A stretch of DNA of 33,372 bases from a virus (IMGVR_UViG_2534681662_000018), one strand, 5' to 3'; counted from the first letter of the stretch, positions 5,571 to 9,584 are shown. Numbers and translations: made by a program. The notes: generated by a model from the letters alone, not told the origin.

Positions 5571-5798
5571 ATGATGGCCCGAAATATAAAAATGGCAACG
5601 GATGCGCAGAACTGGTTACAGGCGCGCGGGAGTCATGTAAATGAATCATATCTCGGCGTGGCGCGTCCGATTCTTGAAATCACTTACCCACCGGTGGAAC
5701 TGGTAAAAAACGCGGTCAGAATTATGGAGCATAAATCCGGAGTTGCCCGTTCTGTATGGACGGCCCGTCTTAATGGTTGTCAGATTATCTGGAGATAA
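5571..5798 (+). CDS. kil: Kil-like small early protein (75 aa)
   Basis: First ORF after B; RBS GAAGGAGAAG upstream. Assignment by position and size in Mu. Confidence 0.6.
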
Positions 5799-5802
5799 AA
5801 AG

Positions 5803-6084
5803 ATGAAAAAAATTACGGCTTATGTCTGGGCAAGTGGCCTGATTGAGTTTGGCGATGTAGTTCCTGATGGTGCATTGCCTGTAATAAGCGGTGAGCCAAA
5901 AACAGTTAAAAACGCAATTGAAGTACTGGCGCGCCATTCACGAACCCGTCCGGTGCAATTGCTGGTTCCGGGTATCCCGGAAGCACCAGATCAGCGGGCA
6001 GCCCAGAAAGCATTAATCAGGTTTTGTCGTGATGTCAGATTCAGGGTTACACGCCCACGTAAGGCAGGCGTAAAACGTAAATAA
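5803..6084 (+). CDS. Early-region hypothetical protein (93 aa, basic C-terminus)
   Basis: ATG at 5803 preceded by GGAGATAAAAAG; in frame with track ORF 5743..6084; MKKITAYVWASGLIEF... Confidence 0.6.
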   Translation: MKKITAYVWASGLIEFGDVVPDGALPVISGEPKTVKNAIEVLARHSRTRPVQLLVPGIPEAPDQRAAQKALIRFCRDVRFRVTRPRKAGVKRK

Positions 6085-6125
6085 ATACAGTCATCTGGTA
6101 AATAAAATTTGAAAGGAGAAACAAA

Positions 6126-6395
6126 ATGGCAAAAGTAATCTTTGAATTTAACAATACAAGAAATATTGAGTTTCAGGAAAATGGAGGTTTTGCCGTAAAT
6201 ATGAATGTGCGACTGGAAGAATCCTCACCTGAGGACCAGACAGGACCACATGACGTAATGGCAGGCATCATCAAGAGCATGGCTCCTGAAATCATTAAAA
6301 AAGCGACCGAGGAGTTGTTGAAATCAGCCAGGGAGCTTGGGCTGGAAGCTGAGGGGAAATTATTCAGCTATAACCCGAATACAGCCAGACATTAA
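6126..6395 (+). CDS. Early-region hypothetical protein (89 aa, acidic)
   Basis: ORF 6126..6395 with RBS GAAAGGAGAAAC upstream. Confidence 0.6.
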   Translation: MAKVIFEFNNTRNIEFQENGGFAVNMNVRLEESSPEDQTGPHDVMAGIIKSMAPEIIKKATEELLKSARELGLEAEGKLFSYNPNTARH

Positions 6396-6415
6396 TTCGC
6401 AAAGGAACGCTGACA

Positions 6416-6835
6416 ATGAACGTCAAAATCCGAAATGAAATTCAGGCATTAATCCGAATTCAGGAACGCAATAACAACGGTGGTGAATTACGCGAGTTTA
6501 TTTGCGCCCGGAAAGTTGATGATTGTGGTGAAAAGACTTACCTGATTGCTTTCGACCATTACAGCATCTGTGCACGTTATTGCGGCGAAAGCATATCCCG
6601 CGCCATTGCATTTGGCGGTGCGTTCAACGTGGATTTATGGGAGTACGTCATGGACCGGGAATACATCTGCGCATCAGACCCTGAAGCCCGTGAAATGTGG
6701 CAGCGTATCTGGCGCGATTACCGGTTAATGGCAAAAGGCTGGGCGCGCTGCTGTTATTCCTCGCTTGCCCTGAAAGCGGTTCAGTTATCGCTGCGGCATA
6801 TTCCGGCATCACTGCGCGAGCCTCTGCTGTACTGA
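6416..6835 (+). CDS. Early-region hypothetical protein (139 aa, Cys-rich)
   Basis: ORF 6416..6835 with RBS AAAGGAACG upstream; multiple Cys (CARK...DDCGEK...SICARYCGES...). Confidence 0.6.
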   Translation: MNVKIRNEIQALIRIQERNNNGGELREFICARKVDDCGEKTYLIAFDHYSICARYCGESISRAIAFGGAFNVDLWEYVMDREYICASDPEAREMWQRIWRDYRLMAKGWARCCYSSLALKAVQLSLRHIPASLREPLLY

Positions 6836-7135
6836 ATGGTGGCTGACATGAAGTGTAATCGTAAGCGCTGGTCACGCGAAGACCGGGAATTTATCGAAGC
6901 CAACGTCGGGGAAATGACCGTTGAAGAAATGGCGGAAAAACTGAAAGTCGCCACAACCGCCCTCCGGGCACATGCCAGAAGGCATGGAATATCATTGTGT
7001 GTATACCGAATCAGTGAACACGACAAATATTTATGTCGTGAACTTTATAAAGAAGGACTGGATATTCATGTCATTGCCCGAAAGATGGAATTAAGCAATC
7101 GAGCTGTATCCAGCATTGTATACAGCGGATATTAA
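6836..7135 (+). CDS. Early-region hypothetical protein with HTH-like segments (about 95-99 aa)
   Basis: ORF 6836..7135; alternative ATG at 6848. Segments MTVEEMAEKLKVATTALRAHARRHGI and LDIHVIARKMELSNRAV look like helix-turn-helix. Confidence 0.5.
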   Translation: MVADMKCNRKRWSREDREFIEANVGEMTVEEMAEKLKVATTALRAHARRHGISLCVYRISEHDKYLCRELYKEGLDIHVIARKMELSNRAVSSIVYSGY

Positions 7136-7679: not shown

Positions 7680-7777
7680 TACCACCATTAATATTTAATT
7701 AGTTCACATTCTTTTAATTATGGCGCGATGCGTCAGGGGATTGCTCGCGCCTGAAACAGATTACTGAGGAATAAAAC

Positions 7778-8317
7778 ATGGTTGATGCAAAAATTCTGAA
7801 TGGTGTCAGCACATTATTACGGGCTTACGGACGCCTGACCTGCGGAGTTCTGGCTGAAAAAATGAATATGCTGCCCTCGTCAATGGTGTATTTCCTGCGT
7901 GATGCGGTTGATGCCGGAGTGCTCACCGAATGCAACGGATTTTATGACGTTCCGCGCCCACGTCCGACGCCGCCTGTAAGACGAAACACAACTGAGCAGC
8001 CTGCTGTTGATGATGCGGTGTGGTGCAACTGGCGTCGCTCATTACCCTGGGTGGAAGGTAATACCATCCCCGCACTGGCAAAAGAGTTTGCGACAGGCGT
8101 ACTGACCTGTGAGTCCGTTCACATCGTTGCAGAAGTGGATGACGAGATGTGCAAACAGGGAATGCCCCGTTTTGTGATGGCTTATATCGATATCCGGCTG
8201 GGGCGGTTTATTTGCAGTTCAAGCGCCTGGAATATCACCGACCATGTACTGCGTTATCTCATCATTGATTTTTCATCAGCACCGGGTGTGGTGCAGGAGG
8301 CTGGTTGTGAAATTTGA
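7778..8317 (+). CDS. Early-region hypothetical protein (179 aa)
   Basis: ORF 7778..8317 with RBS TGAGGAATAAAAC upstream. Function unknown. Confidence 0.6.
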   Translation: MVDAKILNGVSTLLRAYGRLTCGVLAEKMNMLPSSMVYFLRDAVDAGVLTECNGFYDVPRPRPTPPVRRNTTEQPAVDDAVWCNWRRSLPWVEGNTIPALAKEFATGVLTCESVHIVAEVDDEMCKQGMPRFVMAYIDIRLGRFICSSSAWNITDHVLRYLIIDFSSAPGVVQEAGCEI

Positions 8318-9002
8318 AGACTGGGGTATTGATAAAAGTTGTGGCCGGGACGTCCTGGTGTACAAAAACTGTAGCGTGATTGAAGGAGAAGATGCCTGGC
8401 AGGTTCTGGATATACTTCGTTCTGCTTTATGCAGAGCTGGCTATGTTACGCCAGCGTCAGTTAATGGCGGAACTGCCACTACCTGTATCAGAAAGCAACT
8501 TTATAGTTTTTATACAGCCTACAACCGATGGTTAAAGAATGGGGCAATGGAGACGGGCGATGATGTATTTACCCGGGCTGCCGGATTATGTGCCAATGCT
8601 TACGATTATTTTGAATCAACCGGTGCAGACAGTGAAGCCGCATTAGAACAATTACATGCGGACTTTATCTCAGCAGGGCTGAATGAGAAATTGCCATTTA
8701 ACCGGGACAGCAAACATTACAGAAACGAAAGCAAATTGGCCAGATGCCACCTGAATTCAGCACGTGTGGCATGGGTTGAAAAACACTGTATTAGTTCTGA
8801 TTCAGAAATAACGGGGAAAAAGACAGTCGGTGAAAATTCGTATTCGTGGCTGGGGACATTCACCACGGTGAAACAGGAATGCTCGACCTGCGGTAATGAA
8901 AACCCTGAATATCTGAAAGAGTGCCCTCATTGTGGTGGGCAGAAATGCAACAACTGCGATATGGGCGATGACACGGCGTGCATGAATTGTGAAGGTGAAT
9001 AA
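8307..9002 (+). CDS. Early-region hypothetical protein with C-terminal 8-Cys zinc-ribbon-like motif (about 231 aa; start uncertain)
   Basis: Track ORF 8244..9002; in-frame GTG at 8307 is preceded by AGGAGG at 8295-8300, and an ATG at 8244 is also possible. C-terminus CSTCGNENPEYLKECPHCGGQKCNNCDMGDDTACMNCEGE. Confidence 0.55.
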   Translation: MKFEDWGIDKSCGRDVLVYKNCSVIEGEDAWQVLDILRSALCRAGYVTPASVNGGTATTCIRKQLYSFYTAYNRWLKNGAMETGDDVFTRAAGLCANAYDYFESTGADSEAALEQLHADFISAGLNEKLPFNRDSKHYRNESKLARCHLNSARVAWVEKHCISSDSEITGKKTVGENSYSWLGTFTTVKQECSTCGNENPEYLKECPHCGGQKCNNCDMGDDTACMNCEGE

Positions 9003-9003
9003 T

Positions 9004-9369
9004 ATGAATAATGAAACTAAATTTACGCCTAAACACCTGGATGAGGAGCTGGTGAAGGCAGGAATGCTGGAGCGTATGCGGGATATCATTGAGTTTGCAA
9101 TTGATAACGAACTTACCGCTCGTGAGGCATTAGAGATTATCAACCGTGAAATTGAACTCATCAAAGACGTAGTGAAACTTGATAACAAAATAGCCCGCGA
9201 CAAATTTGTTCGTCGCGAGCTTGGATTAAACGAGACAGATATTATCCGTCCTCAAGATTATTTGTGTTTGTTTAATCCTTTTGATAATCGGAGATTTGAG
9301 CAGAAAGATTGTCCAGATGCCAGTTCAGGTCAATCTCAGCATTCTGGCGGAAAGAATCAGCCTCTTTAA
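9004..9369 (+). CDS. Early-region hypothetical protein (121 aa; 3' end uncertain)
   Basis: ATG at 9004 after AAGGTG; AT-rich; the 3' 98 nt overlap the convergent minus-strand ORF 9272..9511. Confidence 0.5.
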   Translation: MNNETKFTPKHLDEELVKAGMLERMRDIIEFAIDNELTAREALEIINREIELIKDVVKLDNKIARDKFVRRELGLNETDIIRPQDYLCLFNPFDNRRFEQKDCPDASSGQSQHSGGKNQPL

Positions 9370-9511
9370 TGGTTTGTCGTGTTGTGGAAATAATGCTGTC
9401 AGCCTCGTCAATAGTGATTACTCCTTTACGAACGAGAGTTATGAGCAGATTACCTGACAACACAAATGAACAATAATCAAATGGAATAAGAGATAATTGA
9501 TTGTCAGACAT
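9272..9511 (-). CDS. Candidate small antisense protein (79 aa)
   Basis: Minus-strand ATG at 9511 preceded by AGGAGA with 5-6 nt spacing (minus-strand sequence AACAGGAGACACTT-ATG). N-terminal 47 codons lie in the 215-bp AT-rich gap between the upstream ORF and gemA. Codon use is plausible. Confidence 0.35.
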   Translation of the reverse strand: MSDNQLSLIPFDYCSFVLSGNLLITLVRKGVITIDEADSIISTTRQTIKEADSFRQNAEIDLNWHLDNLSAQISDYQKD

Positions 9512-9584
9512 AAGTGTCTCCTGTTTCAGTTGATGTTCACAAAGGCCGCGCTAACGCGTGGCCTGTATTATGGAGATACGCAAT

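Follow-up and report, generated by a model that had tools for sequence, protein, structure and literature searches.

Mosaic organisation of a probable Mu/D108-type semi-essential early region in an Escherichia coli prophage

The stretch studied here, positions 5571-9584 of a viral DNA sequence of 33,372 nucleotides (IMGVR_UViG_2534681662_000018, in its full length hereafter called the window), lies between the genes B and gemA and, judged from its sequence, is very probably the semi-essential early (SE or SEE) region of a Mu/D108-type transposable prophage in Escherichia coli. It comprises ten small genes, namely kil and gam, whose products have known host-directed roles, and eight others that are uncharacterised. 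As such, it is no new system and belongs to a long-known kind of gene block as an ordinary, if mosaic, member: its scaffold of kil, gp8, gp9, gam, gp11, the gp13 zinc ribbon and gemA is conserved, and about five slots that interrupt this scaffold hold unrelated alleles, swapped at gene boundaries.

The SE region itself is textbook knowledge and its rediscovery is not news; what is new is this mosaic combination of alleles. From our point of view, the practical value of the analysis is a map that tells the invariant core (kil, gp8, gp9, gam, gp11 and the gp13 ribbon) from the exchangeable slots. Two slot occupants are linked to wider families, namely p6 to Mu-like phages of several genera and an N4-gp3-like module to virulent coliphages, and since Mu is easy to manipulate, both would be good starting points for finding out what these families do. 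The gp15 slot probably represents an antisense cassette with its own predicted terminator, at a place where current Mu annotations are inconsistent.

Gene order and relatives

The first-pass annotation of this DNA, made from the sequence alone, had described the short open reading frames (ORFs) of this stretch as the early accessory block of a transposable phage. Both our ORF listing, which contains every frame named there at the coordinates given, and the synteny with Mu and D108 bear this description out. Across the window the listing follows the Mu gene order, namely repressor (1598-2188, minus strand), ner, A (a 666-aa transposase), B (312 aa), the block, gemA, mor, C and the endolysin gene lys. 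The order within the block is syntenic with Mu, D108 and 12 other loci, and the position between B and gemA, the early strand, the presence of kil and gam and the run of short ORFs were all found. The Mu left end (TGTATTGATTCACTTGAAGTACG...) has a single match in the window, at 1260-1297 and with one mismatch, and the 1,259 bases that precede it match an E. coli inverse-autotransporter/LysM (intimin-like) gene at 99.8% identity, from which it follows that the window holds a prophage of the Mu type that has inserted into the chromosome of E. coli.

The SE region of Mu (NC_000929 Mup05-Mup15) and that of D108 share the B-gemA position, strand and gene order with the window. The products gp7 (D108 type), gp8, gp9, gp11, gp13, gp14 and gp15 are orthologous to the Mu/D108 series, whereas the gp6 and gp12 slots hold non-homologous genes. 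Protein identities to Mu and D108 amount to 100% for Kil, 96-100% for gp8, 98-99% for gp9, 99% for Gam, 86-94% for gp11 and 88-91% for the gp13 ribbon, but only to 52-62% for gp14 and about 30-37% for gp15. The gp7 of the window is the D108 allele and differs from the Mu type, and gp12 of Mu and D108 is absent, two other modules being fused in frame to gp13 instead. On the DNA level (megablast), 61% of the block is covered by Mu and 72% by D108, at 95-97% identity, and 87% by the best complete E. coli genome. Breakpoint analysis identified the segments 5799-6112, 8301-8830 and 9225-9588 as non-Mu DNA, and the segment 8831-9224 is just 81-83% identical. For the DNA at 9225-9588, searches of 50,697 phage records and of 5,426 complete genomes of E. 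coli found no match. The arrangement is nevertheless not unique, as contig 24 of a public assembly (SRR446750) carries the identical allele set at all slots (99-100%) and the exact p15 protein occurs on at least 20 public contigs.

The ten ORFs start with ATG or GTG preceded by ribosome-binding sites of the GGAG type, with the exception of gp9, whose ATG directly follows the gp8 stop. Every one has a PHROG match, with E-values from 2e-28 (gp9) to 1e-164 (a 231-aa ORF in the gp12/gp13 slot); between these lie p6 (9e-38), gp7 (4e-40), kil (3e-43), the minus-strand ORF p15 (7e-46), gp14 (9e-47), gam (2e-73), gp8 (4e-97) and gp11 (1e-105). For the genes that vary among relatives, we calculated the ratio of nonsynonymous to synonymous differences (pN/pS) across 14 loci (Mu, D108 and the window, together with six public assemblies and five prophages of E. 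coli). The values are 0.00 (kil), 0.09 (gam), 0.17 (gp8), 0.20 (gp9), 0.23 (gp11), 0.24 (zinc ribbon), 0.27 (gp7) and 0.40 (N-terminal part of the 231-aa ORF); they derive from pairwise sums that are not independent, and their direction is unambiguous. Taken together, the PHROG matches, ribosome-binding sites and purifying selection show that these are real genes, far beyond what chance ORFs would display.

The same 14 loci define the exchangeable slots. Three unrelated alleles occupy the gp6 slot and three alleles the gp7 slot, a DUF5420 gene after gam is present or absent, the gp12 slot holds the Mu type or the N-terminus of the composite 231-aa protein or is deleted, and the gp14/gp15 area varies as well. 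The boundaries of the alleles are gene boundaries with short shared junctions: all gp7 alleles start with ATGGCAAAAGTAAT, and all genes of the gp14 slot with ATGAA(T/C)AATG. The E. coli Mu-like prophage in NZ_OZ040490 illustrates the principle, as its p6 is 100% and its composite protein 91% identical to those of the window, whereas gam is followed there by an additional DUF5420 gene, and two genes on the plus strand take the place of gp14 and p15. Within the block itself, a search for repeats returned merely short matches at chance level, and no Rfam family was found between positions 5000 and 10500 of the window.

Kil, Gam and the conserved core

The first gene, kil (5571-5798, plus strand; 75 aa, or 74 aa from the second ATG as in the Mu annotation; phrog_2743), encodes a protein identical to Mu Kil. 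Among its 10 distinct DNA alleles in the 14 loci, the pairwise comparisons sum to 201 synonymous and 0 nonsynonymous differences, a constraint far stronger than on any neighbour, gam included. Expression of Mu kil turns E. coli cells spherical, according to the account in PMC3961180 that cites Waggoner 1989. The claim of the first-pass annotation that only Gam has a clear role in this block thus has to be given up, since Kil has a described role as well. The gam gene (7155-7679, plus strand) encodes a Ku-like DNA-end-binding protein of 174 aa in which residues 21-166 match the Pfam family Phage_Mu_Gam (PF07352; E 8e-42, 143 bits versus a cut-off of 28.3). Gam of Mu binds DNA ends and blocks the loading of RecBCD, as summarised in PMC12407980.

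Three further proteins belong to the core. The gp8 protein (6416-6835, plus strand; 139 aa) is 96% identical to gp8 of Mu and 100% to that of D108, and its family is narrow, with 24 clusters that all stem from Mu-like prophages of Enterobacterales. It had been noted as Cys-rich, and it does contain seven cysteines; just two of them (C52 and C56) are conserved among homologues, so that Cys-richness is not a family trait, and the reading as a Cys-rich metal protein was dropped. The most divergent gp8 match (P0156, 45-48%) appears to be a copy with a frameshift, not a distant homologue.

The gp9 protein (6836-7135, plus strand; 99 aa), whose start abuts the gp8 stop, appears to contain a tandem helix-turn-helix (HTH). 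It matches the 'transcriptional regulator' family phrog_323, with additional weak matches to sigma-70 region 4 and HTH profiles on both halves, in agreement with the HTH-like segments noticed previously. The 179-aa protein at 7778-8317 (plus strand), likewise listed before, could be identified as Mu gp11 (94% identity to Mu) and consists of a putative winged-helix-like N-terminus, a Pro-rich linker and a Gp11_C domain (PF25754, E 3e-39). From these features we infer that gp9 and gp11 bind DNA.

The spacer between gam and gp11 contains an imperfect hairpin (7722-7751, plus strand) in the centroid fold, and the spacer as a whole folds no better than shuffled sequences (z -1.6). Relatives carry their DUF5420 gene as an insertion 10 bp downstream of this hairpin, with the indel junction to NZ_OZ040490 at window position 7760/7763.

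As side observations on the core, some Salmonella Mu-like prophages carry a 212-aa DUF3164 protein at the gam position (L021, 4577-5215; L023, 4572-5210), and not Phage_Mu_Gam. At another locus (L013, 4679-5230; ENA contig_6613) gp12 is lost and gp11 (183 aa) ends in the last eight residues of Mu gp12 (AEVNNGKQ); the gp11/gp12 junction keeps the overlapping start of gp13 and looks like a clean deletion between gene ends.

The composite protein in the gp12/gp13 slot

The longest product of the block is a 231-aa protein (8307-9002, plus strand) that starts with GTG behind AGGAGG, overlaps gp11 by 11 nt and is covered over its full length by phrog_6418. It had been described as a protein with an 8-Cys zinc ribbon; the eight cysteines are indeed invariant, and it is the last 56 residues alone (176-231) that carry them and correspond to gp13 of Mu and D108. 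Judged by sequence similarity, this occupant of the gp12 slot strings together modules that are mobile on their own, as each of its three parts has separate relatives. Residues 1-52, which belong to a predicted N-terminal beta/alpha domain, were found again in two short proteins.

The most useful new point concerns the central helical module (8478-8801, plus strand; residues ~58-165), which by sequence belongs to a large, unnamed and phage-restricted family that includes gp3 of phage N4. At E <= 1e-3, an exhaustive HMMER search with the whole 231-aa protein yielded 552 representative clusters, and among the matches listed the majority align to the central module; tblastn with the module found 235 phage records and one plasmid. 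Elsewhere it mostly forms standalone proteins of 100-115 aa, those of prophages being up to 69% identical, and it occurs in N4 (gp3, in the early left-end region), in rV5-like phages (2-5 copies each), in T1-like phages and in N4-like Achromobacter phages. N4 gp3 (E 6e-7) and the unnamed phage family of ~100-aa proteins, which is part of phrog_2510, share with residues ~58-165 a common signature and an early or accessory location. Whereas the module stands alone in N4 and most phages, it is flanked in the window by the N-terminal domain and the C-terminal zinc ribbon, and it was also found fused to DUF551 and to a MazG-like dATP/dGTP pyrophosphohydrolase. Residues W75, G93, L94, C95, P130 and F131 are invariant, and N132, Y138, E141, H148, N150, R153 and W156 are conserved. 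AlphaFold models residues 56-135 as a confident helical bundle and residues 138-186 poorly. No Pfam family was found for the module in our local Pfam copy, which missed Kil_protein (PF26843), Phage_Mu_Gp12 (PF26885) and DUF5420 (PF17457), all known from precomputed annotations, so that negative Pfam results in this study are not exhaustive.

The gp13-type ribbon (8832-8999, plus strand) is modelled with confidence (pLDDT 84-91). Its four CxxC pairs (C192, C195, C206, C209, C214, C217, C225 and C228), for which metal binding is predicted, and a CDMGDD motif are invariant in all 13 sequences that cover them, and matches to Zn_Ribbon_1, DZR and DnaJ_CXXCXGXG stay below threshold. Other proteins carry the ribbon behind unrelated N-terminal domains, one of them ProQ-C-like.

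The gp6 and gp7 slots

The gp6 slot is occupied by p6 (5803-6084, plus strand; 93 aa), with ATG 5803 as the most likely start, which has no similarity to the 76-aa Cys-rich gp6 of Mu and D108. Its relatives, with 37-64% identity, are DMS3-12 and JBD93 gp13 of Pseudomonas phages (Casadabanvirus) and proteins labelled 'host nuclease inhibitor' from Mu-like prophages of Salmonella and Erwiniaceae. The residues G12, L13, I14, G17, P21, G23, A24, R44, V55, P56, G57, P59, E60 and L71 are invariant in the family. Relatives in Mu-like phages always reside in the early accessory region and adjoin gam and/or kil: in the Pseudomonas phages DMS3 and JBD93 the gene comes immediately after gam, in Salmonella prophages it overlaps the kil end, and in Erwiniaceae its place is between kil and gam. 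In the window, p6 comes after kil, and gam is four genes downstream of it. A member of the family without gam is present in KL4 and BcepMigl, two phages of Burkholderia. Across the 298 positions of the phrog_18351 profile, Gam matches 3-157 and p6 matches 186-266, which suggests that fused Gam-p6 forms exist; no instance of them was found. The association with kil and gam is the sole functional lead for p6.

Databases (PHROG/NCBI) label the p6 family 'host nuclease inhibitor'. No curated NCBIfam model matches p6, hence none stands behind this label, and since members also occur without gam in Burkholderia phages, the name has apparently been carried over from Gam; we do not use it as evidence. 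A reading of p6 as a basic nucleic-acid binder was dropped, since the basic tail (pI 10.9) is peculiar to the window allele, the family median pI being 6.6. The fold of p6 weakly resembles that of MbtH-like proteins (e.g. YbdZ, PDB 5ja1_B), to which we do not assign it.

The neighbouring gp7 (6126-6395, plus strand; 89 aa, acidic; phrog_2230) is 99% identical to D108 gp7 and has just its first ~11 residues in common with Mu gp7. A match to the RNase E regulator RraB (PF06877) was discarded, as it reaches 16.9 bits versus a cut-off of 23.3, and a 40%-identical gp7 allele and Mu gp7 show no such match even at E <= 1.

An antisense cassette at the right end

The right end of the block had been reported as an AT-rich pair of genes at 9004-9511. 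The low GC contents of 0.41 and 0.38 agree with this; the two genes are, however, convergent and overlap by 98 bp, the second one lying on the minus strand. The first is a gp14 allele (9004-9369, plus strand; 121 aa) that matches phrog_6075 over residues 1-99 and is 62% identical to gp14 of D108 and 52% to that of Mu over residues 1-81/88. Its first ~88 residues are homologous, and the last 33, for which no homologue was found, run antisense through the 3' end of the next gene.

That gene, p15 (9272-9511, minus strand; 79 aa, acidic; phrog_32893), occupies the gp15 slot and has the lowest GC content of the block. A ribosome-binding site (AGGAG) lies 6 nt ahead of its ATG, and an intrinsic-terminator-like hairpin (9192-9221, minus strand) follows 50 nt past its stop, inside the gp14 coding sequence, with a 13-bp stem and then AUUUUGUUAU (-20.5 kcal/mol, z -5.2). 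The equivalent gp14 codons of Mu also contain a hairpin and a minus-strand T-run, which are annotated as a TransTermHP terminator. The p15 protein is a distant homologue of Mu gp15, and an unannotated ORF of 119 aa between gp14 and gemA of D108 (NC_013594, L002; about 7900-8260, minus strand) is another homologue (tblastx E 3e-8). A search of the phage database gave a match at the protein level (E 1e-7) and no detectable DNA similarity, which favours the minus-strand frame over the plus-strand ORF of the current Mu GenBank record. No relatives of p15 were found in IMG/VR. From these sequence features, p15 is most likely an antisense cassette in its own right, equipped with a ribosome-binding site and a predicted terminator, that would be expressed independently of the lytic early transcript. 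Being antisense to the early operon, it would be no part of the early block proper.

One could speculate further that p15 is a prophage 'moron', i.e. a gene expressed in the lysogen that protects the host by superinfection exclusion or defence and does not serve lytic growth. There is a precedent in the transposable Pseudomonas phage Fc02, in which exclusion genes that are expressed in the lysogen overlap early genes on the opposite strand (PMC9936078), and the opposite strand, strong ribosome-binding site, own terminator and low GC content of p15 would all fit. So would the fact that the slot is filled in relatives by Mu gp15, by an unrelated minus-strand DUF2513 protein or by nothing. Against this stand the PADLOC and other family searches, which matched none of the slot's alleles, the current GenBank record of Mu, in which a plus-strand ORF is annotated here instead, and the promoter search: sites scored by a consensus scan were rarer than in shuffled sequence, with none upstream of p15 or gemA. 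On balance we regard a moron function as possible, yet doubtful.

Inspection of the minus strand at 9512-9600 by eye shows one promoter-like arrangement, TTAATT-N16-CATAAT, which overlaps the gemA start, the CAT of CATAAT being the complement of the gemA ATG, and which failed the consensus scan. A hairpin, GGCCACGCG...CGCGGCC, lies between it and p15. The Mu record gives a 'semi-early promoter' for gemA in the equivalent spacer.

Possible functions of the block

The SE genes of Mu belong to a long early transcript together with A and B, and the region is dispensable for plaques and needed for normal yield and host killing (PMC3325207). Since deletion of the Mu SE region brings the viability and lysogen recovery of infected cells back to 100% (PMC3325207), the block carries host-lethal early functions. 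By orthology with Mu, the nine co-oriented genes from kil to gp14 would form the distal part of such a transcript from Pe, and their products would prepare the cell for replicative transposition during the first minutes that follow infection or induction. Kil would block normal cell growth and morphogenesis, and Gam dimers would cap linear DNA ends against RecBCD and other exonucleases. Furthermore, gp9 and gp11 could act as sequence-specific DNA-binding regulators, and p6, gp7, gp8, the composite protein and gp14 might be small non-enzymatic binders of host or phage proteins. The p15 cassette would stand apart and is perhaps expressed in the lysogen, in analogy to the Fc02 exclusion genes.

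Several points weigh against this scheme. Functions besides those of Kil and Gam derive from weak sequence features, such as the sub-threshold matches (E 0.05) and the sequence inspection behind the N-terminal HTH of gp11. To call short proteins without catalytic motifs small binders is, moreover, the default reading, and the invariant Cys and conserved polar residues of the central module would plausibly also suit a site for ligand binding or catalysis. No lead on function came from the two structure models, and no promoter for p15 passed the consensus scan.

An alternative is that the uncharacterised ORFs support self-regulation and replication, i.e. that they tune Mu's own transposition efficiency, immunity and DNA topology and do not act on the host or its defences. 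The classical Mu phenotypes arm, cim and lig/gem map to the SE region. The two HTH units of gp9, the weakly supported winged-helix-like N-terminus of gp11, the high conservation of the core genes across Mu-like prophages and the neighbourhood of GemA, a regulator, all point in this direction. However, the gp6, gp7, gp12, gp14 and gp15 slots are freely replaced while the prophage type is kept, which is hard to square with integrated regulatory roles, and both the central module and p6 are shared with phages that are not transposable (N4, T1-like, Burkholderia KL4 and BcepMigl). As an account of the uncharacterised ORFs, self-regulation is hence conceivable but, in our view, on the unlikely side.

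The conditioning of the host cell also has to be set against the idea that the block is an anti-defence island in which most uncharacterised ORFs are dedicated inhibitors, each blocking one defence protein or sequestering its signal. The first-pass annotation had named this region as the likeliest site of host-takeover or anti-defence functions. With the host-directed Kil and Gam and the killing by the SE region, the takeover part holds for the region in general, while no single uncharacterised ORF could be tied to anti-defence. The profile and structure searches that had been proposed as a check did not yield a defence or anti-defence family for these ORFs: PADLOC gave no significant match for the ten window proteins or eight alternative slot alleles, no ORF matched a PHROG, Pfam or NCBIfam family annotated as anti-defence, and fold searches with the two structure models returned no informative match. 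Neither by sequence nor, for the two modelled proteins, by fold did an uncharacterised ORF resemble a characterised inhibitor of the known anti-defence families (Ocr, ArdA, Acr, nucleotide sponges and others), and no solved structures related to these ORFs by sequence were found. The Mu SE genes have been described for decades as small proteins with uncharacterised functions (PMC3820752, PMC8705779), and our literature search on the functions of Mu gp6-gp15 or N4 gp3 found nothing.

What speaks for anti-defence is the pattern of about five slots that swap unrelated alleles within a conserved scaffold, as expected of accessory, conflict-type genes, together with the central module, which is phage-restricted, resides in early or accessory regions of virulent phages and is near-absent from plasmids. 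The proteins are small, mostly acidic and without enzymatic domains, and Gam lies in the same block. In a Mu-like Pseudomonas phage, Gam and GemA interact genetically with Gabija, to which they are reported to sensitise the phage DNA (PMC12407980); the block is thereby relevant to defence, there as a trigger and not as an inhibitor. Conversely, gp8, gp9 and gp11 are 94-100% identical to their Mu/D108 counterparts and under purifying selection, unlike fast arms-race genes, gp9 and gp11 look like DNA-binding proteins, and the host killing by the Mu SE region was seen in laboratory K-12 (PMC3325207), which indicates host takeover and not counter-defence. The slot exchange and the phage-only central module are thus compatible with an anti-defence role without demonstrating it, and we consider an island of dedicated inhibitors rather improbable.

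A bolder speculation, to which we attach little probability, would see the composite protein as a small 'polyvalent' early effector. Its central module would then be the founding example, in a tractable phage, of a phage-only family whose invariant Cys and Asn/Tyr/Glu/His/Arg cluster might form a ligand or catalytic pocket for takeover or counter-defence, the ribbon might be a shared docking module, and the gp15 slot might be a site for cargo expressed in the lysogen.

That some of the listed ORFs are chance open frames, as one might suppose from the 33 C-terminal residues of gp14 (9268-9369) or from alternative plus-strand ORFs at 9281-9476, is already largely refuted and highly improbable, because each ORF falls into a PHROG family and has a ribosome-binding site or a coupled start, the variable ORFs are under purifying selection, and the minus-strand frame at 9272-9511 is the one conserved at the protein level.

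Neighbouring genes and the insertion site

The block is bordered upstream by B (4617-5555). Its right boundary is gemA (9586-10134, plus strand), which lies outside the block and encodes a protein that matches the Pfam family GemA (E 9e-32) and is 88-91% identical to that of Mu and D108. The gemA frame is open from a GTG at 9514 (206 aa), and homologues and the ribosome-binding site favour ATG 9586 (182 aa). Downstream of gemA follows mor (10131-10520), and both paralogues of the Mor family are present, namely Mor and C (11313-11735). Between them lies a 137-aa ORF with a TTG start and hydrophobic stretches (10758-11171); relatives carry genes of 72, 120 and 39 aa or of 72 and 163 aa there. 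Uninterrupted copies of the inverse-autotransporter/LysM gene that is disrupted at the left end of the prophage are annotated in other strains as two separate coding sequences.

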